Source: Patescibacteria group bacterium (GTDB lineage: Bacteria > Patescibacteriota > Minisyncoccia > JAHIHE01 > JAGLIN01). Taken from it: DNA of 64,000 nucleotides. Below the pieces are notes generated by a model, which was given only the letters and a program-made list of their open reading frames with translations, had not been told where the DNA came from and searched no databases. The stretch lies in contig JARGGI010000001.1 in the NCBI GenBank assembly GCA_029210775.1, forward strand, positions 16,493 to 80,492, given 5' to 3'. Both the position numbers and the translations under genes were made by a program. Position 1 is the first letter of the stretch, and every line of letters begins with the position of its first letter. Positions 233 through 41,702 of the stretch are shown here, in pieces.

Positions 233-1700
<1,468 letters not shown>

Positions 1701-2040
1701 CTAGGGAGTAAAGGTGTAGGATATAATTTTATATCCCTACCGTACGGACACAAAATTTTGTGTCCCTACCCAGATCGACTCCCGATTCGTCGGGAATTAC
1801 GATAGCTGTTGGTAATACAGGTTTATTTGTTGAAAAATAGATAAAAACAAAATTGCCTTCAGGACAATTGCACAAAGTTTGTAAGAAAACAAAGGTCGCA
1901 TCTATACAATAAGTATTGCATATGATGCGATTTTTGTTATAATGGAAATATCATATTTACGTTTTATAATATAAAAATTCTTACATTTAGATATAAATTT
2001 TATTTAATACATAAAATATTTATATGATAATATGAGTCTT

Positions 2041-2114
2041 GGGCGTGTAGCTCAGCTGGTTAGAGCGTTTCTCTGATAAGGAAAAGGTCCCTGGTTCGAG
2101 TCCAGGCACGCCCA
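2041..2114 (+). tRNA. tRNA-Ile (anticodon GAT) in 16S-23S spacer
   Basis: GGGCGTGTAGCTCAGCTGGTTAGAGC...CTGATAAG anticodon loop...GGTTCGAGTCC T-arm; acceptor GGGCGTG/CACGCCC; no encoded CCA. Confidence 0.9.
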
Positions 2115-2199
2115 CTTAATTAAAATGTAATATATAACAGATTACTTGCAATAAGATTTTATAAATGTTATAAGTATAAATGTTGATTTAAATTTATAT

Positions 2200-2273
2200 G
2201 GGCCCGTAGCTCAGCTGGCTAGAGCACTTGCCTTGCACGCAGGGGGTCGCAGGTTCGAATCCTGTCGGGTCCA
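2200..2273 (+). tRNA. tRNA-Ala (anticodon TGC), G3:U70 identity pair present
   Basis: GGGCCCGTAGCTCAGCTGGCTAGAGC...CTTGCAC anticodon loop...GGTTCGAATCC; acceptor GGGCCCG/CGGGTCC gives G3-U70. Confidence 0.9.
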
Positions 2274-2506
2274 CCCATTATTAATATTTTTATAAACTCG
2301 TGAATTATCACGAGTTTTATATTGTATAATTTAACAATATAATAATTGTTTTTTTAAGATTAATAAATATTTGTTGTATTAAAAAATTTATGTTATAATA
2401 AATATACTTTCGTTTCATACTTATTGAAAGTTTTTGAATTGGCATATATAAAAAAATAAAAATAAATTTAAATAAAAATAAAATAACAAGAAAGGGGGTG
2501 ACGTAA

Positions 2507-3190
2507 ATGCAATATCATTTATTTACAGATTACTATTTTATGATGTTAGGTTTGATGGGAGATTTTTATAAATCATTATTGCCTGAAGGTGTAATTAAAG
2601 CAATATTTATTTTTATAGTTGGTTTAATTTTTGCAATTGAGTTTAGTAAATTTGCGAAAAAACTCGCTATAAAAGCTGGGATAGATAAGACTTTGGAAAA
2701 AATGGGAGTAAAGAATTTATTTAAGAAAGCTGGAATTAAATTTTCAATAGCCGATGCAATTGGTTGGTTGGTAAAATGGTTTATTTTACTTTTTGCTTTA
2801 ATGTCCTCAGTTGATGCTTTAAATTTGCCTCAAGTTTCGCAATTCTTAAGTGTAATCTTAGGATATATACCAAGCTTATTTGGTGCGCTTATTATTTTGA
2901 CTGTCGGTCTTATCGTTTCTCAATTAGTCTATGAAGCTGTTGAGGGTGGATCAAAGGCAACAGGAATTAGAATGTATCACATCGCAGCAATTGCCTTTAA
3001 GTGGGTAATCGTTGTTGTCACATTATTGGTAGTTCTTGAGCAAATTGAAATCAAAACTGAAATCCTAAAAATTTTTGCAGGCGGTCTTTCTCTGATGATC
3101 GCTATCGCTGGTGGATTAGCATTTGGTTTGGGTGGACAATATCATGCTAAAGAATTGTTAGATGAGTTAAAAAGTAAGATAAGAAAATAA
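2507..3190 (+). CDS. hypothetical polytopic membrane protein (227 aa) encoded between tRNA-Ala and 23S
   Basis: Clean ORF preceded by strong SD AAGGGGGTGACGTAA-ATG; several hydrophobic helices; followed by a 12-bp-stem hairpin terminator. Confidence 0.75.
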   Translation: MQYHLFTDYYFMMLGLMGDFYKSLLPEGVIKAIFIFIVGLIFAIEFSKFAKKLAIKAGIDKTLEKMGVKNLFKKAGIKFSIADAIGWLVKWFILLFALMSSVDALNLPQVSQFLSVILGYIPSLFGALIILTVGLIVSQLVYEAVEGGSKATGIRMYHIAAIAFKWVIVVVTLLVVLEQIEIKTEILKIFAGGLSLMIAIAGGLAFGLGGQYHAKELLDELKSKIRK

Positions 3191-3225
3191 AGAATAAGTT
3201 ATTATCCAAATATTTGTGTGAGAAA

Positions 3226-3262
3226 CAGAACAAAGGCAAATCCGCATTTCGCGTTTGCCTTT
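3226..3262 (+). terminator. rho-independent-like hairpin after the 227-aa CDS
   Basis: AACAAAGGCAAA-tccgcatttcgcg-TTTGCCTTTGTT perfect 12-bp stem followed by T-rich tract. Confidence 0.6.
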
Positions 3263-3333
3263 GTTTCGTTGTTGATAAAAATGCGTTTTTATAACAGATA
3301 TAATTATGTTGGTTTTGTATTAATAAATACTTT

Positions 3334-3465
3334 GAATTATGAAATGTCTTTCTGAGCGAAATAAAGAATCACAAAATTACGCATACAGAACTTAATGAAA
3401 GGATTATTATGTCACTTTAATTCTTGAAGTAATAATAGTATTTTGTATTTTGTAATTCAAAATAA
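3334..3465 (+). repeat. intergenic repeat family D, copy 1 (about 130 bp; second copy 31779-31906)
   Basis: GAATTATGAAATGTCTTTCTGAGCGAAATAAAGAATCAC...GTATTTTGTAATTCAAA aligns about 80% with 31779-31906. Confidence 0.7.
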
Positions 3466-4089
3466 ATATGACAAAAAACTAATCAAGAAGTGTCAACCAT
3501 TTAGGATTAAACAAATTAATCCCTTAAATAAAATCCCAACATCAGGAAATACAAATAACAATTTACAGAGTTGGGAAAAAATAATTTAAAACAATAAACT
3601 TAAAAGTTTAAATTAAAAAACTATGATTAGAAATATTATAAATCTAATTTCTGGTTATTTTTTTGTTTTAGAGCTGTCAGTGTATCGCTTTAAATTATTG
3701 TTATCTTAGGTATTATTTACCTAAAATAGCGTTTATTATTATGCTTTTTACGAAGCTCTTGACAGTATTATTAATTGTGCTATTCTTATAAAGTGTTAAA
3801 AAGATAGAAAAATTATATAATTCATAAATAAAATTATGAAAAAGAAATTAAATACAGTTAAAAAAAGAAGCGGATAGTTTTGTAAATATGTAACGACTTT
3901 GAAACCGCCTCTTAAAAAAGGCATTTTTATTTTTTCTAATAATTTAAAATTATTTTCTAAAAAATTTAGTAAATATTTCTAGATTATTATAATCTAGTTG
4001 ATCATTGAAAACTGAATAAAGTGATTAAATATATAGGTAAATTACATCAATTTTATTTGCAATTATCAATTGCTAGTTAATCTTACATT

Positions 4090-7150
<3,061 letters not shown>

Positions 7151-7258
7151 TAATTGTGTTTTTTGTTTTTTCAAAAAGTGCAATTCAATGATTAACTAGC
7201 TGTTAATGGTTGTAATATTATTGATAAATTTATTTTATATAATTTAGTACAAGAATTC

Positions 7259-7376
7259 TCTGGTGATTTTAGCGATGAGGTCACACCTGATCCCATCTCG
7301 AACTCAGAAGTTAAGCTCATTAGCGCCGATGGTACTTGCTCCGTACGGAGTCGGGAGAGTAGGTCGTTGCCGGAGA
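7259..7376 (+). rRNA. rrf: 5S ribosomal RNA
   Basis: TCTGGTGAT...CCCATCTCGAACTCAGAAGTTAAGC...GCCGATGGTA...GAGAGTAGGTCGTTGCCGGAG canonical 5S helices. Confidence 0.9.
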
Positions 7377-8436: not shown

Positions 8437-9555
8437 ATGAATTTAAATTTTATTGGTAAGATTGATAAGACGCTTTTTTTTGCTGTAGTAATTCTGATTT
8501 GTGTCGGACTGATAATTATTTTAAGCACGTCTTATAGTTCATCAGGAATTGATTTTCTTAATTTTAAAAAACAAATCATTTTTTCCGTAATTGGCATAGT
8601 ATTAATGTTTATAATAAGTCTTTTTGACTATAGGGCTTTGAAAAATTATACAGGCATTTTATATATTCTCGCTTTTTTTATTTTGGTTGCGGTTTTGTTT
8701 TCAGGGTTATTAATCAGGGGAGCTTCAAGTTGGTTTAGTTTTGGTTTTATAAATTTTCAACCATCGGAATTTGTAAAAATTATTGTAATTATAATTTTAG
8801 CGAAATATTTATCCAAAACGAAAGATTATGTAAGTGATATAAAAAGACTTGTGGTATCTGGAATATATATTTCTTTGCCTGTTTTGCTTATTCTTTTTCA
8901 ACCTGATTTCGGAAGCGCACTAGTTATAATGTTTATCTGGTTTTCCATGATTTTTATATCTGGCATTAACAGGAAATATATGATCTCAGTTATACTTTTG
9001 GGGGGGGTATTGTTTACAACGGGATGGTTATATGTTTTTAGAGACTATCAGAAAGATAGAATTTTAACTTTTGTAAATCCACAATCAGATCCTCACGGTG
9101 CTGGCTATAATGTTATACAATCTATAATTGCAATTGGTTCGGGAAATATCTGGGGAAAGGGATTGGGGCATGGTTCTCAGAGTCAGTTAAATTTCTTGCC
9201 TGAGAAACATACTGATTTTATTTTTGCTGTTATTGCCGAAGAAATGGGTTTTATTGGCATTGTTTTTGTTATCAGTCTTTTTGGCATTATTTTTTATCGG
9301 CTATTTAAAATTGTAAATGAGTCTCAAGATAATTTTGGCAAATTGATAGTTTTGGGTAGCGCATTTATGCTTATGTTTCATTTTTTTGTAAATACTGGAA
9401 TGAATATGGGAATTATGCCAATAACAGGAATTCCGCTACCATTTATAAGTTATGGTGGGAGTTCGCTTGTAGGATTTTTAATTGTTATAGGTTTAGTTCA
9501 AAGTGTTTATGTAAAAGGGAGGGGATATAAGATAGAGAAGGGGGAGGATGATTAA
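8437..9555 (+). CDS. ftsW: SEDS-family peptidoglycan glycosyltransferase FtsW/RodA
   Basis: 10-TM protein with conserved SEDS blocks (SEFVKI, PDFGSA, FIFAVIAEEMGF, PLPFISYGGSS). Confidence 0.85.
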   Translation: MNLNFIGKIDKTLFFAVVILICVGLIIILSTSYSSSGIDFLNFKKQIIFSVIGIVLMFIISLFDYRALKNYTGILYILAFFILVAVLFSGLLIRGASSWFSFGFINFQPSEFVKIIVIIILAKYLSKTKDYVSDIKRLVVSGIYISLPVLLILFQPDFGSALVIMFIWFSMIFISGINRKYMISVILLGGVLFTTGWLYVFRDYQKDRILTFVNPQSDPHGAGYNVIQSIIAIGSGNIWGKGLGHGSQSQLNFLPEKHTDFIFAVIAEEMGFIGIVFVISLFGIIFYRLFKIVNESQDNFGKLIVLGSAFMLMFHFFVNTGMNMGIMPITGIPLPFISYGGSSLVGFLIVIGLVQSVYVKGRGYKIEKGEDD

Positions 9556-9722
9556 ATGAGAATAGTAATTTATAGCTGTCGTTCCTACCATAGGGAGGAA
9601 TCGCTCTTATCTGGGAATTGATATTATATATCTTTTTTTATGGGAATAGTGTGAATTGTTAATTCTTCAATATAATTCTACCACTTCTTTAATTATCCAC
9701 CACAGTTATTAGTGTAGAGCCT
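9556..9722 (+). repeat. intergenic repeat family C, copy 1 (about 165 bp; second copy 26068-26233)
   Basis: AATGAGAATAGTAATTTATAGCTGTCGTTCCTACCATAGGGAGGAATCGCTCTTATCTGGGAATTGATAT...TCCACCACAGTTATTAGTGTAGAGCC about 90% identical to 26068-26233, same orientation. Confidence 0.8.
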
Positions 9723-11869: not shown

Positions 11870-12967
11870 ATGAAAAAAAAAGTGAATAGAAAAAAGCAGA
11901 AAGCTGACAATTTAGAAGAAATAAAAAATCTTTTAGAGAAGCTTTCTAACGCTAATGGAATTTCGGGGCATGAGAAGGAGATCAGAACCATTTTAAAAGA
12001 AGAATTGAAATCGTATGTTGATCAAATCAATACGGATAAGCTGGGAAATTTAATTGCTACCAAAAATGGCAAGGGACCGTCGGTGATGATTGCGGCACAT
12101 ATGGATGAAATTGGATTTATGGTTAAATACATAGATGATAATGGCTTTATCTATTTTGCTAAATCGGGTGGCTGGTTTGATCAGACACTTTTAAATCAAA
12201 GGGTTATTATCCATTCCAAAGAAAAACATATTACTGGTGTGGTTGGATCAAAACCACCACACATTATGAAAGCAGAAGAAATGAAAAAGATCATTGAGAT
12301 TGGCGAGATGTATATTGACATTGGCGCAAAGGATAAAAAAGACGCTGAAAAAATTGGTATTCAAGTAGGAGATACGATAACTTTAGATAGAAAATTTAAG
12401 AGTTTAGCTAATAATATAGTAACAGGCAAGGCATTTGATAATCGTGCTGGATTAGTTATGTTAGTTGAAGCGGCGCGAATTTTAAGCAAAAGCAAAGTGA
12501 ACGCAAAAATACATTTTGTTGGTACGGTACAAGAGGAGGTCGGCTTAAAAGGTGCAAGGACTTCTGCCTATAGTTTAAATCCCGATGTGGCTATTGCGAC
12601 TGATGTAAATATTCCTGGCGATCATCCAGGTGTAGAAAAAAAACATTCCTCCATTGAAATGGGCAAAGGACCTTCTATAACTGTTAGTGACGCCGAAGGA
12701 GTCGGTATTGTTGTTGCGGAATCTGTTTTAGATTGGATGAAGGGAACAGCTCAAAAGGCTAAAATACCTTATCAACTTAGTGTCACTGAAGGCGGAATGA
12801 CCGATGCGGCGATAATTAATATGACCAAACATGGAATTCCATCTGGTGGAATTTGTGTTGCGACAAGGTATATTCATTCTCCGGTTGAAGTTTTAGATTT
12901 GAAAGATCTTGAAGAGTGTGCGAAATTAATAGCCGAGTGTGTGAAGTCGGCATATAAATATTTTTAG
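11870..12967 (+). CDS. M42 family aminopeptidase (FrvX/endoglucanase-like)
   Basis: AAHMDEIGFMV, GKAFDNRAG, metal-ligand blocks typical of M42. Confidence 0.8.
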   Translation: MKKKVNRKKQKADNLEEIKNLLEKLSNANGISGHEKEIRTILKEELKSYVDQINTDKLGNLIATKNGKGPSVMIAAHMDEIGFMVKYIDDNGFIYFAKSGGWFDQTLLNQRVIIHSKEKHITGVVGSKPPHIMKAEEMKKIIEIGEMYIDIGAKDKKDAEKIGIQVGDTITLDRKFKSLANNIVTGKAFDNRAGLVMLVEAARILSKSKVNAKIHFVGTVQEEVGLKGARTSAYSLNPDVAIATDVNIPGDHPGVEKKHSSIEMGKGPSITVSDAEGVGIVVAESVLDWMKGTAQKAKIPYQLSVTEGGMTDAAIINMTKHGIPSGGICVATRYIHSPVEVLDLKDLEECAKLIAECVKSAYKYF

Positions 12968-12993: not shown

Positions 12994-13030
12994 AAAAAGG
13001 ACAGTCCTTTGCATAAGGACTGTCCTTTAG
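12994..13030. terminator. bidirectional hairpin terminator between convergent genes
   Basis: AAAGGACAGTCCTT-tgcat-AAGGACTGTCCTTT 14-bp stem, A-run upstream, T-run downstream. Confidence 0.65.
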
Positions 13031-13112
13031 TGTTTTTTTGTTTTATACCACAATATTAACCAGCTTCCCTTTCACAAAAATCATTTAATATTATTTCACA
13101 TAAATTTGACCC
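13019..13112. repeat. duplicated copy of leuS 3' end/terminator region (Y) plus 27-bp repeat X; partners at 14311-14415
   Basis: 13019-13083 about 90% identical to 14354-14415; 13084-13112 matches 14311-14337. Confidence 0.8.
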
Positions 13113-14305
13113 AAGAAATTTATAAGATGCTTAAAATATACTTTATGATCTTCATGTCTTATTATTTCGCCTTCTTTTTGAGTTCTAAACCATTTTAGCC
13201 TATCTATTTTTATATTATCAAACCTTTTTGCCCATTTTGTTTCAACTCCCAGGGCAACAGCATAGGGAAGGTATTTTGAGAATGTTTCAACTTTCTCTTC
13301 ATCCATTCTGAATCGTTCGGCAGTTTGAAGATAGTCTTTAAATCCCAACCATTTGGCGCGTTCTTCAGCACCGAGTTTGGTATATTGTGATCTAAAAATA
13401 ACGTTTTCTTTTTTTGAAAATAAAGAGTTTTTGTATTGTGGACCTATGATGCTATTTGTTTTTGATATTAATGAAATAGATTGTCCTTTATAATCATTGC
13501 GATATGCGTCAACAGATCTTTTTAATTGTGTGGAAATATTTTCAGCTTCTTTTCTAGAAAAATATTTTCTATTTTCATATCTGAATAAAATTAATCTAAT
13601 ATCAATTTTTTTTAATTCACACCAATGTATAAAATGTTTTGATATATTATACTCATATTTTAGATAATATAGTCGCTTAAGCTGGTCTAAAATGAAATTT
13701 GATAATTTTTCAGTATCTATTATTATATTTTTAAGAGGGAAAACATCAACATTATTGTTTTTAAAATTGAATATGCAATCTGATATTAATCGGTCGCATG
13801 TATCAATAGCGTCAAAGCCTTTATTTTTGATTAGGTAGTATTTAAAACGACCTCTTTCAATTTTTTCGTCAATTGCCAAATGTCCCTTTATTAATAGGTG
13901 AAAAATCGTTGCGTAAAATTCGCGCTTGCCAATACTTTTATCTGTTAAATAACCGGCAATCGCAGGGTGAATATTTGATGGCGGTTGGTAAATTGGAATT
14001 ATTGTGGTATTTTTTAGAAGATGTTTTTCTTGTAAATAGTATATTCCATATTCCTTAATAAAAATTATTATTGCACATGCTAATAAAATAAATATATAAA
14101 GTAAAATTATATAAATGTTATTGTTAAATAAAGAAATTTTTATAAAAATCAAAGAATATAATTCATCAATTGGTAAAATAAGCAATGAAATAAGCACCAA
14201 AACACTAAAATATAAATATATAAATCTTTTGGCATATTTAGGTTTTTTTAAAAAAAGAAAATATATAATGGCAATTATATAAAGGAAGATTATTATATCA
14301 TTCAT
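13091..14305 (-). CDS. DUF2207-like predicted membrane protein (404 aa)
   Basis: N-terminal TM cluster, C-terminal FSKYLPYAVALGVETKWAKRF resembling DUF2207 C-terminus. Confidence 0.6.
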   Translation of the reverse strand: MNDIIIFLYIIAIIYFLFLKKPKYAKRFIYLYFSVLVLISLLILPIDELYSLIFIKISLFNNNIYIILLYIFILLACAIIIFIKEYGIYYLQEKHLLKNTTIIPIYQPPSNIHPAIAGYLTDKSIGKREFYATIFHLLIKGHLAIDEKIERGRFKYYLIKNKGFDAIDTCDRLISDCIFNFKNNNVDVFPLKNIIIDTEKLSNFILDQLKRLYYLKYEYNISKHFIHWCELKKIDIRLILFRYENRKYFSRKEAENISTQLKRSVDAYRNDYKGQSISLISKTNSIIGPQYKNSLFSKKENVIFRSQYTKLGAEERAKWLGFKDYLQTAERFRMDEEKVETFSKYLPYAVALGVETKWAKRFDNIKIDRLKWFRTQKEGEIIRHEDHKVYFKHLINFLGQIYVK

Positions 14306-14310
14306 ATATC

Positions 14311-14415
14311 TAATATTATTTCATATAAATTTGGTCCTTCTTTAAAGGATAGTCCTTTAGTGTTTTTTTGTTTTATATCACTATATTAACCAGCCTTCCT
14401 TTCACAAAAATCACT
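14311..14415. repeat. X' (14311-14337) and Y' (14354-14415) repeat copies; Y' contains the last 12 codons of leuS
   Basis: see 13019-13112. Confidence 0.8.
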
Positions 14416-17400
14416 TTTCTAACTTCTTTGCCTGCAATCCATTTCTGAATCTTTTCGCTTTCAAGAGCGAGTTTTTTTGCTTCTTCTTCTGAAATATTAG
14501 CTGGGACTTTAATTTGATCACGGAGCTTTCCGTTGATTTGGATGACAAGATTTATTTCGGTTTCTTTGATAAAAAGGGGATTAATTTTTGGCCATGATTG
14601 CAAGTGAATACTTTTCTTTTCTCCTAACATTTCCCAAAGTTCTTCGGTAATATGTGGAGCAAAAGGGGACAATAAAATTAAAAATATTGAATACTGGGAA
14701 TTAAATATCATTTTTTCTTTTTCCATCTCATTCAATAAAATCATCATTTGAGAAATCGCAGTATTAAATTTCATGTTTTCAATATCTTCTGTTACTTTCT
14801 TGATAGTTTTATGCAATAATGATTCTATTTTTTGATCTTGTAGGAATGCAGAATCTTGCGTACTTTTTTGCAAATATTCAATCAATTTATCAGTAGCTTG
14901 TTTTCTGTGATCAAATCTATATTTATCTTCACTGGAACATTCGCCAAAAGATTTATTTAAAACATTTGGCATAAAAATAGAATCGTAACCGAAACCTCGT
15001 GTTCCGCGTGATTTTTCTAAAATTTCTCCTTCGCATTTTCCTTCAAATTGATTGTATTTTTTATCTTTTGGATTATATAAGGTAACTACGGATTGAAAAT
15101 AAGCAGACCTATCTTTTTTATCTACAAGTTCTTTAAAAATTTTTTGATATGCTTTTTTATAATCACCTTCTGAATATCGGCTTGAAAAAACTCCTGGACG
15201 TCCATCAAGCGTGTTAATACACAAACCACTATCATCAGCAATTGTTAGATAGCCAGTTTTTTGGGCATAATATTTTGCTTTAATTAAAGAATTTTCTGCA
15301 AAGGTTTTTCCATTTTCTTCAGGTTCTTCAATTGATTTATCAATGTCTTTTAATGAAATTATATTAAAATTAGCAAGATGATTTTTTAGTTCTTTTAGTT
15401 TTCCTTGATTATTTGTAGCGATTAATATTATTTTATTTTTATATGGGAACGCAAAATCTTGTGTTTCTACATTAGAATTCACAATATTATGTTTTTTTAT
15501 CTTTTTTTGCATATTCCAAACTCTTTCCAAAAATCTGTTCATTCCAATTAAGCTTGTCGTGTTCCATGGAATGGCGTCGCCATAAGGACCCATAAACATT
15601 TCATAAAGGCGAAGTGTATCCGACCCATATTGCTTGATGACATCATCGGGATTAACAACATTTCCGCGTGACTTGCTCATCTTTTGTCCATTTTCGGCGA
15701 GAATCATTCCATGCGATCTTCTTTTAGCGTATGGCTCACGAGTATTTACATATCCGAGATCAAACAAAAATTTATGCCAAAAACGAGAATATAATAAATG
15801 CAAAGTAGTGTGTTCCATACCGCCATTGTATAAATCAACTGGCATCCAATACTCAATTTTCTTGCGTGAAGCAAATTCTTTTTTGTTTTTTGGATCTAAA
15901 TATCGCAAGAAATACCAACTTGATCCCGCCCAATTTGGCATCGTGTCCGTTTCTCTTTTCGCCTCGCCTTTGCATTTTGGGCATTTCACTTCTACCCATT
16001 TCTTTATATTAGCAAGAGGAGATTCTCCCGTTTCTGTCGGTTCATAATTTTTGACATTTGGAAGCTCAAGTGGGAGATTCTTTTCATTTAATGGAATATT
16101 TTTAGTTATGTTTATAATTTCAAATTCCCAACCGACAAGACCGTTTTTTTGAATTTTATTAAGATAATCATTTGTAAAACTAAAACATTTTTCAAGTTCT
16201 TTAAAACTTCTAATCTTTGTGTTTGGGATAATCTTTTTTATCAAATCTTTTTTATTAAACAATTTTTCCAAGTTTTCAAAATTATAAACTTTATTAATTT
16301 TTATAACCTCAAACTCATTCGTATTTTTATTGTTTATTTTAATAAAATCTCCAATTTTAATATTACCAAAATATTTATCTTTTTCTTCAGGATTAAAAGC
16401 TCTTGTTTCAACAGTTTTTTTTCTGCAAATAATTTGATCCCAAATTTTATTTACTCTGAAATTTAATTCCATTTTAATGTTCAATTTTTTCAAACCACAT
16501 TCCTTGCATTTCACAATCGGAATTGGTTCACCCCAATAATGCTGGCGTGAAAAAATCCAATCTCGCAATTTGAAATTTACAGCCTTTTTACCAAGTTTAT
16601 TTTTTTCTAACCAAGCAGTGATTTCTTTTTTTGCTTCGGGAGTCTCAAGACCATTTAGAAAATCTGAATTAACATTTACACCATCTTCTTTAAAACAACC
16701 AGCTTTGCCTATTAAGCGTTGCCACAGCATTTTTTGATTGGATAGATTTAAAAAATCATCCATCTTGTCAGAATCGATCCAGACTGTATTATGGTTTATT
16801 GTTTCTTCTTCGCTTGGTTTTTCCAAACTTTCATCTTCCAATTTAAAAAGTAATCCTTGTTCAACTGAATAGCGGTTCTCATCTTTATGTCTATTAAAGA
16901 AAGTATTGTATTGTTCGCTTCCCAGATGACGGATAAATTTCAAATTTTTATAGCCAGTTTCTTCCTGAATTTCTCTTTTTCCTGCTTCTTGGGCAGTTTC
17001 TCCTTCTTCAATTCCACCAATGATTCCCGTGTGCCAATTAAATTTTTTCCAATCAAGACAAAGATATTTATCCTCATTCCAATGCTTCAGAAAAGCAATT
17101 ACAATTTTTTGACGTACTGTTTTTTTCTCAGGTCTAATCACATCATCTCCACTAAAAACCTTAAATAATGGAGCAACTACTTCTTTAATCTTGATACCAA
17201 ATTTCTTTGCAAACTCAAAATCTCTTTCATCGTGAGCAGGAACTGCCATAATGGCGCCAGTGCCATAAGAAGAGAGAACATAGTCCGCAATCCAGATTGG
17301 AATTTCTTCGTTACTTGCTGGATTTATTGCTTTTATACCTTTCAATTCAACGCCAGATTTTTCTTTGGCTAAATCAGTTCTGTCTAAATCAGATTTATTT

Positions 17401-18437
17401 TTTGCTTGTAAAATATATTTTTCAACTTCACTGTAGTTTTCAATATTATCTTTTAATTTTTCAATTAAACTGTGTTCGGGCGATAAGACCATATAAGTAC
17501 ATCCGAAAAGAGTGTCGGGGCGAGTGGTGAAAACTTTAATGCTACTGTCATTGCAAGCGGAGTGAAGCAATTCTGAATTTATAGGCGAAACCTGTATTTG
17601 ACTGGATTGCTTCGTCGCTTTGCTCCTCACAATGACAGAAAATTTAATTTCTGCTCCCTCTGACTTTCCAATCCAATTAATTTGTTGGGTTCTGATTTTA
17701 TTTAAATAATCAACCGAATCTAAATCTTTAATTAATCTGTCAGCATATTTTGTAATTCTCAGCATCCATTGTCTCATTACTTTTCTTTCTGCTAAGGCAC
17801 CACATCGCTCGCACGCACCATTAACGACCTCTTCATTAGCTAGTCCAATTTTGCAACTGGGACACCAATTAATCGCCATCTCTTTTTCATAAGCAAGTCT
17901 ATGATTATCAATAAATTCTTTTTTTTCAATTTCATTCAAATTTTTTGGAATTTTTAAATCTTCAATCGGTTTTGCTTTATCTGATTTTTTATCATAAAAA
18001 CTATTAAACAGTTTCAAAAAAATCCATTGCGTCCATTTATAATATTCTATGTCTGTAGTGTTAATTTCTCGCGACCAGTCAAAACTAGGTCCATAACTTT
18101 TTATTTGGCGTGTAAAATTTTTAATATTATTCTTCGTGACAACTTTTGGATGAGTTTTTGTTTTGATGGCAAAATTTTCCGTAGGCAAACCAAAAGCATC
18201 CCAGCCAATTGGGAACATTACATTATATCCACTCATCCTCCTTTGGCGGGCAACAATGTCAATGGCAATATGACTCCGAAGATGTCCTACATGAAGCCCT
18301 GCTCCAGATGGATATGGAAATTCAATTAAACAATAATACTTTGGTTTTTTTGTAAAATCTTTTGCATCATATATCCCACTTTTATCCCATTTATCTTGCC
18401 ATTTTTTTTCAATATTTCTAAAATTGTATTGTTTCAT
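14373..18437 (-). CDS. leuS: leucyl-tRNA synthetase, 1354 aa, with embedded Nudix, ASCH-like and HAM1/ITPase domains plus a MITE-derived in-frame insert
   Basis: HIGH=HVGH, CP1 TTRPDTLFG, KMSKS present, C-terminal anticodon-binding region; perfect Nudix box GGIEEGETAQEAGKREIQEETGY; HAM1 blocks ATNNQGKLKE / ADDSGLCINTLDGRPGVFSSRY / RGTRGFGYDSIF. Confidence 0.9.
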   Translation of the reverse strand: MKQYNFRNIEKKWQDKWDKSGIYDAKDFTKKPKYYCLIEFPYPSGAGLHVGHLRSHIAIDIVARQRRMSGYNVMFPIGWDAFGLPTENFAIKTKTHPKVVTKNNIKNFTRQIKSYGPSFDWSREINTTDIEYYKWTQWIFLKLFNSFYDKKSDKAKPIEDLKIPKNLNEIEKKEFIDNHRLAYEKEMAINWCPSCKIGLANEEVVNGACERCGALAERKVMRQWMLRITKYADRLIKDLDSVDYLNKIRTQQINWIGKSEGAEIKFSVIVRSKATKQSSQIQVSPINSELLHSACNDSSIKVFTTRPDTLFGCTYMVLSPEHSLIEKLKDNIENYSEVEKYILQAKNKSDLDRTDLAKEKSGVELKGIKAINPASNEEIPIWIADYVLSSYGTGAIMAVPAHDERDFEFAKKFGIKIKEVVAPLFKVFSGDDVIRPEKKTVRQKIVIAFLKHWNEDKYLCLDWKKFNWHTGIIGGIEEGETAQEAGKREIQEETGYKNLKFIRHLGSEQYNTFFNRHKDENRYSVEQGLLFKLEDESLEKPSEEETINHNTVWIDSDKMDDFLNLSNQKMLWQRLIGKAGCFKEDGVNVNSDFLNGLETPEAKKEITAWLEKNKLGKKAVNFKLRDWIFSRQHYWGEPIPIVKCKECGLKKLNIKMELNFRVNKIWDQIICRKKTVETRAFNPEEKDKYFGNIKIGDFIKINNKNTNEFEVIKINKVYNFENLEKLFNKKDLIKKIIPNTKIRSFKELEKCFSFTNDYLNKIQKNGLVGWEFEIINITKNIPLNEKNLPLELPNVKNYEPTETGESPLANIKKWVEVKCPKCKGEAKRETDTMPNWAGSSWYFLRYLDPKNKKEFASRKKIEYWMPVDLYNGGMEHTTLHLLYSRFWHKFLFDLGYVNTREPYAKRRSHGMILAENGQKMSKSRGNVVNPDDVIKQYGSDTLRLYEMFMGPYGDAIPWNTTSLIGMNRFLERVWNMQKKIKKHNIVNSNVETQDFAFPYKNKIILIATNNQGKLKELKNHLANFNIISLKDIDKSIEEPEENGKTFAENSLIKAKYYAQKTGYLTIADDSGLCINTLDGRPGVFSSRYSEGDYKKAYQKIFKELVDKKDRSAYFQSVVTLYNPKDKKYNQFEGKCEGEILEKSRGTRGFGYDSIFMPNVLNKSFGECSSEDKYRFDHRKQATDKLIEYLQKSTQDSAFLQDQKIESLLHKTIKKVTEDIENMKFNTAISQMMILLNEMEKEKMIFNSQYSIFLILLSPFAPHITEELWEMLGEKKSIHLQSWPKINPLFIKETEINLVIQINGKLRDQIKVPANISEEEAKKLALESEKIQKWIAGKEVRKVIFVKGRLVNIVI
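17545..17638. repeat. MITE-like palindromic element (TGTCATT family) inserted in-frame inside leuS CP1
   Basis: CTGTCATTGCAAGCGGAGTGAAGCAATTC...GGATTGCTTCGTCGCTTTGCTCCTCACAATGACAG; encodes SVIVRSKATKQSSQIQVSPINSELLHSACNDSS between EIKF and VFTTRPDT. Confidence 0.8.
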
Positions 18438-25280: not shown

Positions 25281-26067
25281 TTAATTATAGATAAAAATTA
25301 AATCTCTTTTGTTTAAGAGATTTTATCCTTTGGAGATCGGTTAATCTTGATTCTAATTTACTTATAATCACAGATCTTAATGTTTTATCTCCTTTTTTAT
25401 AAAAATTATTTTCCAAGGCTTTTTTTAATACTCTATACTAATTTTTAAGTCATTTATTTTAAGATCGATCATTTCTATATTTATATTCAAACAACTTTCA
25501 TTGCTCATCTTTTTTTCAAGTTCAGCTGATCTATTTTTTATATATTTTAGTTTTATTTTTTTCTCCCTTTTTTTAATAATAGCCAGCCTGGCGTATGCTC
25601 TATCTAACATTTCATTATAATTCATAGCCTCCTTCTCATTTTGTTCTATTTCGTCCTGTCTTTTTTTAAGAGATTAATAATTAATTTTAAAACTCTCAAT
25701 CTTACACCTCCACATTTATAAATAAAGTTTATCACTTATAACAATAAAAGGCAATAATAATCCAAAAGGCCGGCGACTAGCAGTTTCTAAATAATACGAG
25801 CTATAGATTTTGCTTACTATTATTTTTAAATAATAGTGAGGAGAGAGATTTGCAAAATATTTAGTCCGATTAGAACACCGCTAATTCACCGACCTTTTGG
25901 CAATAATAATCTAAATATATTGTAATTTTATTATATAAATTATATCAAAATTGTCAACATAAAATTATCATTTTAATAAATGTGTTGAACTAATACACAT
26001 AAGGCTCTTTGTCAAAACGTGTGGTGGCTAACAGCTAACATGACTTTAGATATATAGTTTTGTATTA

Positions 26068-26233
26068 ATGAGAATATTAATTTATAGTTGTCGTTCCTAC
26101 CATAGGGAGGAATCGCTCTTATCTGGGAATTGATATTTGATATCATTTTTTATGGGAGTGGTGTGAATTGTTAATTTATCAATATAATTTTACAAATTCT
26201 TTAGTTATCCACCACAGTTATTAGTGTAGAGCC
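26068..26233 (+). repeat. intergenic repeat family C, copy 2
   Basis: see 9556-9722. Confidence 0.8.
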
Positions 26234-30990: not shown

Positions 30991-31778
30991 GATATATTCT
31001 TCAAGCGGTTGAAGTTATTTAAAATAAATTTAGGATAACTACACCGCTATCCCCATCTAAGAATGAGAAATTAACTTTCATGCTGTTTTCATTATAAATC
31101 ATTTTATAAATATTATCCATAAAAAAATAAGTATTTATTTTGATCAATATATTTTTATTTTGAATTACGAAATGCAATGAAATTAAAATTGACAGACCTG
31201 TGTATAAGCTAACTTTATAAAAGTGACACAAATTTCAGAAAATAAATAATCCTTATTTTAAAAGATAAAACTTGTGGATAACTTTGAATTTGACATGTTC
31301 TTTGAAAGGAAGATAATAGAGACGTGGCTATGTCTTTATAAAAGGCAAAAAGCATTGTATTAACCGCAAGGGGAGGGTCTTGATTTTTATGTAAACAAAG
31401 AAAAGAATCAATTAATTTTTAATAAAAATTTTCCAACAAGGAAAAGAAAAATTGATTCAAATAACCTAATACTTGATTGAAATAGTGCGAAAAGATCAAC
31501 CAAACGAAATTCTTGTTTAGATTTTGGTTGTTTTTTGTACACTAAAATTTCTTTTTACAAATGCTGTTTAATGTTTTGTCACTTTGTTAAAGACGAATAA
31601 AAAAATAAATAAGTTTAATATAAAAAATTAAAGGTCGAAGTTGTTTGTCTAAGTTTTAATAATTTGCTATTATTTTGGATTTAATTTTAAGTATCTGTGA
31701 TAGATTCCAGATCAAGTTCGAAATAATAAAAAAGGGTGAAAAATTTAGACGAGTAACTCTAAAAATTTTAATAACTTT

Positions 31779-31906
31779 GAATTACGAAATGTCTTTCTAA
31801 GTCAAACAAAGAATCCCGAAATTACGCACACAGATCTTAATGAAGGGATTATTATGTGATTTTAATTCTTACAATGACAACAAAATTTTGTATTTTGTAA
31901 TTTAAA
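31779..31906 (+). repeat. intergenic repeat family D, copy 2, about 95 bp upstream of vWA gene
   Basis: see 3334-3465. Confidence 0.7.
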
Positions 31907-33449: not shown

Positions 33450-33842
33450 ATATTGTTATTGCGAGCGAAGCGTGGCAATCATGCGACTATGTCTGTCATT
33501 GCGAGCGAAGCGTGGCAATCCCGAAATAAATTCAGAAAGTTATAATATATCGTTTCGTGAATTTAGACTTGAGATTGCTTCGTCGCTATGCTCCTCGCAA
33601 AGACAATGTTATTCCTCTGTCATTGCGAGCGAAGCGTGGCAATCCCGAAATTAGTTTCAGAAAACTGTAATATATCGTTTCGTGAATTTAGACTCGAGAT
33701 TGCTTCGTCGCTATACTCCTCGCAAAGACAAACACAAGAAAAAAAAGTTTTATGTTAATAAACTCGAGATTGCTTCGTCGCTATACTCCTCGCAAAGACA
33801 GAGATAGATTGTCACATCGCTATGCTCCTCGCAACGACAAAC
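33450..33842. repeat. array of about 4 tandem/partial copies of the TGTCATT MITE family (about 110-120 bp units)
   Basis: alternating arms TGTCATTGCGAGCGAAGCGTGGCAATCCCGAAA and GATTGCTTCGTCGCTATRCTCCTCGCAAAGACA separated by a conserved core ...CGTTTCGTGAATTTAGACTYGAG. Confidence 0.85.
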
Positions 33843-41329: not shown

Positions 41330-41702
41330 TCTTGCGATGACATAGGTTTGTCTTTGCGAGGAGGAACTCGGGATTGCCACACTTCGCTCGCAAAGACAGA
41401 TAAAAAAACTATACGAAATTAAATTTGGGATTGCCGCTCTTCGCTCGCAATGACAGAGGAATAACATTGTCATTACGTGGAGGAACTCGGGATTGCCACG
41501 CTTCGCTCGCAAAGACAGAGGAATAACATTGTCATTGCGAGGAGGAACGACGAAGCAATCTTGAGTCTAAATTCACGATACGATATATTACAGTTTTTTG
41601 AATTTAAATTTGGGATTGCCACACTTTGTTCACAAAGACAGATAAAAAAACTATACGAAATTAAATTTGGGATTGCCACACTTTCCTCGCAATGGCAAGA
41701 GC
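41330..41702. repeat. second array of TGTCATT MITE family, opposite orientation to the 33450-33842 array
   Basis: 41530-41640 is the reverse complement (about 85% identical) of the unit at 33600-33730; additional short-form units TGTCTTTGCGAGGAGGAACTCGGGATTGCCACACTTCGCTCGCAAAGACA. Confidence 0.85.

Follow-up and report, generated by a model that had tools for sequence, protein, structure and literature searches.

The 3′ end of leuS in a 64-kb stretch of a Patescibacteria contig (the window) carries directly downstream, on the same strand, a gene for a membrane protein with a C-terminal DUF2207 domain (DUF2207_C), which we label G, and G is itself followed by a second copy of the end of leuS. 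Based on the layout of this site and on a comparison with 176 fetched loci (labeled L001 etc., with homologous proteins labeled P0001 etc.), we propose that G entered the 3′ end of leuS in an old insertion in which the incoming DNA brought a replacement tail, and that the resulting tail repeats mediate the loss of G and perhaps also its gain. We give this explanation a probability of about one half. The anatomy of the site, the empty sites in relatives, the conserved pairing of leuS with G, the recurrent leuS pseudo-tails, and the lack of a recombinase are all direct observations.

On the minus strand, leuS is followed by its tail, a spacer, and half of a terminator, then by a copy of the end of G, G itself, the native end of G, and finally the leuS pseudo-tail with spacer and terminator (Table 1). 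A repeat search gave an 83-nucleotide (nt) direct repeat (13004-13086 and 14334-14416, 71 of 83 positions identical, 86%) that covers the last 13 leuS codons, the stop codon, the spacer, and two thirds of the terminator, with mismatches at 7 of 25 positions in the hairpin part, none of the 15 in the spacer, and 5 of the 43 in the stop and coding part. The pseudo-tail, with the codons ATG ATT TTT GTG AAA GGG AAG CTG GTT AAT ATT GTG GTA TAA, reads MIFVKGKLVNIVV and a stop, as had been recognized downstream of the 404-residue gene in a first-pass annotation of this DNA; the duplicated leuS tail and terminator described there are likewise real and extend slightly further than described. Nested within this arrangement is a 26-nt repeat (13083-13108 and 14308-14333, 24 of 26 identical, 92%), of which one copy lies at the stop codon of G and the other 2-5 nt 5′ of its ATG. 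Its 22-mer core occurs exactly twice in the window, where 0.05 occurrences are expected and none of 100 shuffles reaches two, and none of 500 shuffles gave a local alignment as good as the 24 of 26. The core was not found in any of the 176 fetched loci. The first-pass annotation, which had correctly placed both copies, took this repeat to be a 27-bp att-like site. However, the alignment of G homologues ends in HL(I/V)xF(L/M)G(Q/R)IY(V/T)K, and three of them (P0004, P0010, and P0012) have the identical C-terminus FLGQIYVK, so that the copy at the stop codon is native coding sequence of G and the upstream copy is a pseudo-tail of G, found nowhere else.

The two repeats together form two 109-nt blocks that flank G and are circular permutations of each other rather than tandem copies. 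The upstream block consists of leuS tail, spacer, half-terminator, and G-tail, and the downstream block of G-tail, leuS tail, spacer, and terminator. A simple tandem duplication would give head-to-tail copies of one contiguous segment, which is not the order seen here (x-y-G-y-x). The three repeated segments of the window have diverged to a similar degree (~8-15%), which is compatible with a single event. Of the two hairpins, the distal one (12996-13028) is the sole full bidirectional terminator, with a 14-bp stem and a folding energy of -21.7 kcal/mol (z -6.7), as the first-pass annotation had noted; the proximal remnant folds with -7.4 kcal/mol and has no T-run. Since the proximal hairpin is crippled, leuS probably reads through into G and the two genes are probably co-transcribed. 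Rfam has no RNA family in 12994-14430, and promoter-like matches in the region are no more common than in shuffled sequence.

The empty site for which the first-pass annotation had proposed a search is present in two relatives. In L091, only 71 nt with a terminator separate leuS from the convergent M42-M24 genes, which are those of the window, the two loci being 74% identical in LeuS, 75% in the nucleotides of the leuS 3′ end, and 81% in those of the M42 gene. A three-way alignment shows L091 and the distal copy in the window to be collinear from the tail across A-rich spacer and hairpin to the end of the M42 gene; the proximal copy departs from L091 inside the hairpin. In the second clean empty site, L177, leuS and its terminator are followed by an M3 peptidase gene in convergent orientation. 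Presence and absence of G are therefore seen in two synteny backgrounds, with M42 (window and L091) and with M3 (L174 and L003 with G, L177 and L172 without it), and in both the tail repeats bound the G indel. The L172 locus, together with L089 from the same species cluster, has no G but retains a leuS-G leader homologous to that of L175; this leader runs into ATG ATT, where the ATG is that of G, and on into a 17-codon pseudo-tail (score 29 in the scan described below), the terminator, and the M3 gene. Contig L089 breaks inside the pseudo-tail, and L172 continues through that break. By eye, the leaders of L172 and L175 resemble decayed tails, but this similarity was not significant.

In at least six lineages (L001/L002, L003-L008, L173, L174, L175, and L176), leuS is immediately followed by a homologue of G in the same orientation. 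The G proteins of these loci are 42-53% identical to that of the window and to each other, with 66% between L003 and L176; for the C-terminal 53 residues of LeuS, identity among these loci is 58-83%. On the evidence of this divergence the pairing is old, since homologues lying beside leuS share only 42-53% identity, and this sets aside the suggestion of the first-pass annotation that an accessory gene was recently added here; as no two of the G proteins are close, nothing points to a recent transfer from one of the sampled lineages. In L173 (321-2439), leuS is followed by two tandem DUF2207_C paralogues, one P0002-like and one P0015-like, that are 41% identical. A metagenome scan with an alignment of the LeuS C-terminus gave mostly distant leuS loci, with G in none of them among the matches listed; it did yield locus L110, considered below.

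Pseudo-tails were scored with a position-specific scoring matrix (PSSM) built from 11 true tails, with the scanned locus left out, and the scan was extended to 73 leuS loci. The window scores 49 (49.3; maximum in shuffles -10 (-9.7)), L174 scores 39 (shuffle maximum -10), L176 scores 25.5 (-6), and L175 scores 6 (-6). In L003 there is only a trace, with a score of -14 against a shuffle maximum of -12 and 17 nucleotides identical to the pseudo-tail of L176. The pseudo-tail begins 0-9 nt past the stop codon of G in every case and is followed by the terminator, and across loci it matches its own true tail at 35 of 39 positions down to ~20 of 39. The extension of the tail repeat past the stop codon into spacer and hairpin is specific to the window, and so is a significant upstream copy of the G-tail when the other G-bearing loci are tested; L173 has a marginal copy of the tail of its first paralogue 5′ of that gene's own ATG (p 0.008 before correction for 7 tests). 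One further match, in L143 (score 7.5), lies inside another open reading frame (ORF) and is a false positive, and repeats near the leuS stop in L097 and L103 are repeated palindromic terminators or REP-like (repetitive extragenic palindromic) elements and not tail copies. The first-pass annotation had stated that its cassette would be contradicted by relatives that share the duplication and lack an empty site; pseudo-tails in four lineages (in L003 as a trace) come close to the former, whereas empty sites do exist.

The same pattern occurs with a different cargo and with a different host gene. In L110 (5402-5918), a distant Patescibacteria contig with a plain LeuS of 868 residues, the gene for a 134-residue Nudix hydrolase lies between a true and a pseudo leuS tail, and the tail repeat (69 nt, 80% identity) runs on past stop and spacer and takes in the opening codons of the gene that follows. 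The Nudix gene has its start codon in a copy of the start of that following gene and its stop codon inside the pseudo-tail. An empty-site relative of L110 was not present among the fetched loci. In a blind scan of 1369 ORF tails from all fetched DNA, strong downstream copies were found only for leuS (window and L110), for Gly-rich paralogues, and for glmS (L096 and L112). In the two glmS loci (L096, 7536-7667; L112, 3688-3819), the last 13 codons and stop (DKPRNLAKSVTVE and a stop) recur 48 nt further downstream, beyond a small hairpin.

The differences between tail copies bear on their origin. All of them are synonymous in glmS (8 of 8 in L096 and 11 of 11 in L112), as are 5 of 6 in the leuS tails of L110. 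In the window there are two synonymous differences, R>K, and I>V, in addition to the boundary codon; the two replacements are residues found in the working tails of relatives, and relative P0059 has exactly the pseudo-tail peptide, IFVKGKLVNIVV, as its working tail. Mainly synonymous differences imply that the copies diverged while both were part of working genes, and thus that one copy was probably brought in with the DNA of another lineage and is not a local duplicate that has since decayed.

We now put forward a hypothetical sequence of events for leuS-G loci. We propose that, in a lineage of Paceibacteria (Patescibacteria), G was inserted into the 3′ end of leuS in front of its final 13-14 codons, and that the incoming DNA brought a replacement tail, presumably foreign, so that leuS was kept intact while the resident tail and terminator were displaced and came to lie as a pseudo-tail just after G. 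The two tails would then be direct repeats that bound exactly the leader, G, and one tail, and ordinary homologous recombination between them, of the RecA type, could delete G cleanly and generate empty sites such as L091 and L177. In the opposite direction, the pseudo-tail could serve as the right-hand homology arm with which a segment consisting of the leuS 3′ end and G recombines into a relative lacking G after DNA uptake. Such recombination through tail arms would account for the constant position of the junction and the variable freshness of the pseudo-tails, as well as for the terminator after the pseudo-tail being the one that follows leuS in relatives without G. A search of G and its neighbors (genes for FtsW, a class II aminoacyl-tRNA synthetase, M42, and Metallophos) gave no recombinase, transposase, or nuclease, and the ends of the insert have no terminal inverted repeats. 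As far as the sequence can tell, no element-encoded enzyme is involved.

In the window, a younger event must be added, in which we propose that the 83-nt block and the 26-nt block from the end of G were copied together; joint copying would make the upstream block a circular permutation of the downstream one. A permuted x-y-G-y-x order requires a circular or tandem intermediate; a single simple tandem duplication or deletion is insufficient. Specifically, the order could result from one crossover, in the 83-nt block, by a circularized ~1.33-kb molecule whose closure joined half-terminator to G-tail (path a), from a 1.33-kb tandem duplication running from the tail of an upstream tandem G copy (compare L173) into the hairpin, followed by tail-tail recombination (path b), or from break repair templated on the distal copy and stalling in the hairpin (path c). 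All three would place a junction inside the terminator hairpin and require a second G tail upstream. Simple tandem duplication, Campbell integration of a native fragment, and single gene conversion were also worked through by hand and were dropped where they did not give the half-terminator to G-tail and G-tail to leuS-tail junctions in the observed order.

Several points weigh against this proposal. The recombination steps are ones that we infer, paths a to c are equally workable for the window duplication, and stretches of 40-80 nt with 80-88% identity offer only marginal homology for recombination of the RecA type. L001/L002 have G but show no pseudo-tail, and pseudo-tails that remain recognizable across leuS genes diverged by ~25% need repeated refreshing or gene conversion. 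As to the foreign tail, the synonymous bias in the window comes from 4-5 substitutions, and several other true tails resemble the window pseudo-tail no less than its own true tail does. Over 39 nt, agreement with relatives amounts to 28-34 positions for the true copy and 27-35 for the pseudo copy; as the tail is only ~40 nt long and highly conserved, comparisons of own with foreign tails have little power.

The proposal has to be weighed against accounts that need no incoming tail or that invoke a dedicated element. The arrangement could have arisen purely locally, by replication slippage or tandem duplication around an ancestral array of leuS with one or two G genes followed by deletions, with intragenomic gene conversion keeping the tails alike and with the empty sites as simple deletions. 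The tandem G copies of L173 are the kind of array this supposes, the divergence of G roughly parallels that of leuS, and true and pseudo tails of one genome share lineage-specific variants (ATA/TTA in L176 and AAATTGGTTAATGTGGT in L174). Three steps, namely a tandem G, a 1.33-kb tandem duplication with its junction in the hairpin, and tail-tail recombination, give exactly the order in the window. Nevertheless, such a history takes several steps and leaves unexplained the mostly synonymous copy differences in L110, the all-synonymous ones in glmS, and the same architecture around an unrelated Nudix cargo; moreover, the pseudo-tail of L176 agrees better with the true tail of L175 (32 of 39) than with that of L176 itself (28 of 39). 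We regard a local origin as rather unlikely. We consider distinctly unlikely the model of the first-pass annotation, in which a site-specific or replicative process recently brought a mobile single-gene cassette into an empty leuS-terminator site, leaving an 83-nt target duplication and a 27-bp att-like end. An insertion footprint at the leuS 3′ end is indeed present, an empty site with identical flanks exists, nested x-y...y-x repeats are what a staggered opening of target and circular donor alike would give, and the three repeated segments are similarly diverged. A recent, site-specific event is a different matter: G has stood beside leuS since the lineages diverged to 42-53% identity in G, a pseudo-tail lies at the same position in four other lineages (in L003 only as a trace), and the supposed att-like 27-mer is the coding end of G itself and occurs nowhere else. 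No transposase, integrase, recombinase, or terminal inverted repeat accompanies the gene, its neighbors are housekeeping genes, and we know of no transposase that makes a target duplication of 83 nt.

Two further accounts concern the pseudo-tail itself. It might be functional and kept by selection, either as a translated mini-ORF that mimics the LeuS C-terminus or as an RNA or DNA element needed with the terminator, in keeping with a frame and stop position that are intact in five lineages and with the ATG ATT found before the copy in both the window and L172. The copies in L174, L175, and L176, however, have no start codon, the 5′ half is decayed (F>S, K>R, and G>D, for example), the L003 copy is nearly erased, the region has no Rfam match, and relatives with an empty site manage without a copy, which makes a function highly unlikely. 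An artefact of metagenome assembly, in which strain variants were joined via a shared leuS tail, is scarcely credible even though the source is a contig of a metagenome-assembled genome (MAG) and L089 breaks exactly inside its pseudo-tail: the repeats are 86-92% identical rather than identical, L172 spans the break point of L089, and the order of G, pseudo-tail, and terminator is found in independent assemblies from NCBI, ENA, and Logan.

The protein encoded by G matches only the C-terminal DUF2207 domain in Pfam (PF20990, E 1.2e-24, 87.8 bits against a cut-off of 33) and has no match in NCBIfam. It has about three predicted N-terminal transmembrane helices, an alpha/beta domain, and a conserved C-terminal LPYAVALGV region; an identical protein, P0001, is present in an NCBI Patescibacteria MAG. 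The AlphaFold model has a mean predicted local distance difference test score (pLDDT) of 68, and a fold search of the PDB with it gave nothing at E<=0.001. About 20 homologues of 360-396 residues and 38-53% identity form a DUF2207_C-only subfamily. The N-terminal DUF2207 domain (PF09972) is absent from G and from all 20 close homologues and was seen only in distant matches of 540-660 residues, and a scan of genome contigs with the G alignment gave distant DUF2207 proteins only and no close relatives. Membrane proteins of the DUF2207 family (YgcG-like; S. mutans SMU.243) share with G the PF20990 domain and its conserved SKYLPYAVALGV region, but G lacks PF09972 and the Gly-rich tail, is ~200 residues shorter, and belongs to a subfamily known only beside leuS in this lineage. 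A full-length DUF2207 protein is reported to influence stress tolerance in S. mutans (PMC10457818). The strict linkage and likely co-transcription with a LeuS carrying Nudix and Ham1 domains is the only functional lead for G.

Both accessory domains of this LeuS are embedded in the synthetase, NUDIX at residues 468-559 and a complete Ham1/RdgB ITPase (Ham1p_like) at residues 1004-1188, and there is a further insert at residues ~640-760. The layout with NUDIX and Ham1 is common to dozens of Paceibacteria relatives, and others bear alpha/beta-hydrolase or ASCH-type inserts. A 19-nt direct repeat on the minus strand (about 15449-15467 and 14843-14861) brackets the Ham1 insert; the copies of this repeat, ACACAAGATTTTGCGTTCC and ACGCAAGATTCTGCATTCC, are 16 of 19 identical and 606 nt apart, encode TQDFAF and TQDSAF, and each form a small palindrome. 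The repeat may, in broadly the same way as the copies of the leuS tail, mark an insertion. A palindromic repeat family (TGTCATTGCGAGCGAAGCGTGGCAATC) has an in-frame copy inside leuS (17536-17647, residues ~268-300, VIVRSKATKQS), which resembles the in-frame palindromic elements of Rickettsia, and other members in intergenic clusters at 33452-33841 and 41365-41697. Elsewhere in the window, a 167-nt intergenic repeat (9555-9721 and 26067-26233, 92% identity), of which the first copy begins at the stop of the FtsW gene, has no Rfam or tRNA match, and a 138-nt direct repeat (3324-3461 and 31769-31906, 83% identity) has its first copy between the tRNA-Ala and 23S rRNA genes of a complete rRNA operon (233-7375: 16S, tRNA-Ile, tRNA-Ala, 23S, and 5S), in which ~1.8 kb separate tRNA-Ala from 23S.

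Table 1. Features at the leuS 3′ end, in window coordinates.
Feature	Position	Strand	Basis or remark
leuS, 1354 aa	14373..18437	-	ORF and translation; Pfam tRNA-synt_1, editing domain, Anticodon_1, NUDIX, Ham1p_like
Proximal copy of the 83-nt repeat	14334..14416	-	Repeat search; folding of the remnant hairpin
Functional last 13 leuS codons and stop, VIFVKGRLVNIVI and a stop	14373-14414	-	Within the proximal copy
Proximal A-rich spacer, 15 nt	14358-14372	-	Within the proximal copy
Proximal truncated terminator hairpin	14334-14357	-	Within the proximal copy
G pseudo-tail, copied last 6 codons, stop, and 5 nt; reads QIYMK and a stop	14308..14333	-	Repeat search, shuffles
G, DUF2207_C-only membrane protein gene, 404 aa	13091..14305	-	Pfam PF20990, homologue alignment
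Native 3′ end of G, GQIYVK, stop, and 5 nt; source copy of the 26-nt repeat	13083..13108	-	Homologue C-termini
leuS pseudo-tail, MIFVKGKLVNIVV and a stop	13043..13084	-	Begins 6 nt past the G stop; PSSM score
A-rich spacer and complete bidirectional terminator hairpin	12996..13042		Common to the leuS-G transcript and the convergent M42 gene
Convergent M42 aminopeptidase gene, right flank	11870..12967	+	NCBIfam M42 aminopeptidase models, E 1e-76; 81% nt identity to the L091 gene

Insertion at the 3′ end of a gene with a replacement tail is a known type of event, and what is new here is that no dedicated enzyme takes part and that the pattern recurs across Patescibacteria. Integrative elements and genomic islands target the 3′ ends of tRNA or protein genes via tyrosine-recombinase att sites, and their integrase-less remnants are CIME-like (cis-mobilizable element). 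As in such islands, the direct repeats at leuS-G correspond to the 3′ end of the target gene, the copy on the element side restores the gene, empty sites exist, and excision is possible between the repeats. However, the leuS-G site has no integrase, excisionase, or other mobility gene, the unit is a single gene of 1.2 kb, and the boundaries of the repeat vary by lineage without a fixed core. A transposon or insertion sequence would have a transposase and terminal inverted repeats, neither of which is present, and 83 nt is far beyond known lengths of target site duplications; in place of the imperfect-palindrome attC of an integron cassette, the 3′ flank of G is a leuS tail copy, with no integrase nearby. 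Further comparisons are homology-facilitated or ordinary homologous recombination of transforming DNA and displacement models such as those for orphan immunity-gene arrays in type VI secretion loci of Vibrio. There, as proposed here, a conserved upstream gene anchors the incoming DNA, which displaces resident 3′ sequence and leaves remnants without the need for an element enzyme, but the leuS remnant amounts to only 13-17 codons and would have been reused as a homology arm, and the Patescibacteria case is argued from sequence. The closest architectural parallel is with the "gene hybrids" made by mobile ORFs in fungal mitochondria, in atp6 of Allomyces and in atp6, atp9, cox2, and nad3 of Glomus (PMC3630166). 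The order is identical, that is, core, inserted C-terminal segment, inserted ORF, and displaced native C-terminal pseudo-copy; the host gene stays intact, relatives lack the insert, and a C-terminal duplication flanks the inserted ORF. In the fungal case the inserted ORF is a homing endonuclease (LAGLIDADG or GIY-YIG) that drives the event, whereas G encodes a DUF2207_C protein with no nuclease signature, and the leuS-G case is bacterial, chromosomal, old, and common to several lineages, with the nested duplication of the G end added in the window.

The Patescibacteria, or Candidate Phyla Radiation (CPR), have tiny genomes, few recognizable mobile elements, and a probable dependence on DNA uptake, and the routes by which they acquire and shed genes are little understood. 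As a story of a single locus the finding is modest, and it is the recurrence that carries its wider value. The order of true tail, cargo, and pseudo-tail at the 3′ ends of essential genes is a repeatable signature that can be searched for genome-wide, and its recurrence at leuS and glmS with different cargo suggests a flux of genes in the CPR without dedicated recombinases. A broader claim, which we regard as unlikely at present, would be that Patescibacteria gain and exchange single genes via recombinase-free "tail-hitchhiking" cassettes, in which a copy of the last dozen codons of an essential, conserved neighbor (leuS or glmS) is a portable homology arm with which host recombination after uptake could put the gene into any relative or remove it there, and that the same process, insertion between short direct repeats, may feed domain inserts such as Ham1 into LeuS. 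The DUF2207_C-only protein, as the conserved partner of a Nudix/Ham1 LeuS, offers a lead to the function of both. If tail repeats do serve as homology arms, they would provide a simple and general route by which accessory genes are attached to core genes.

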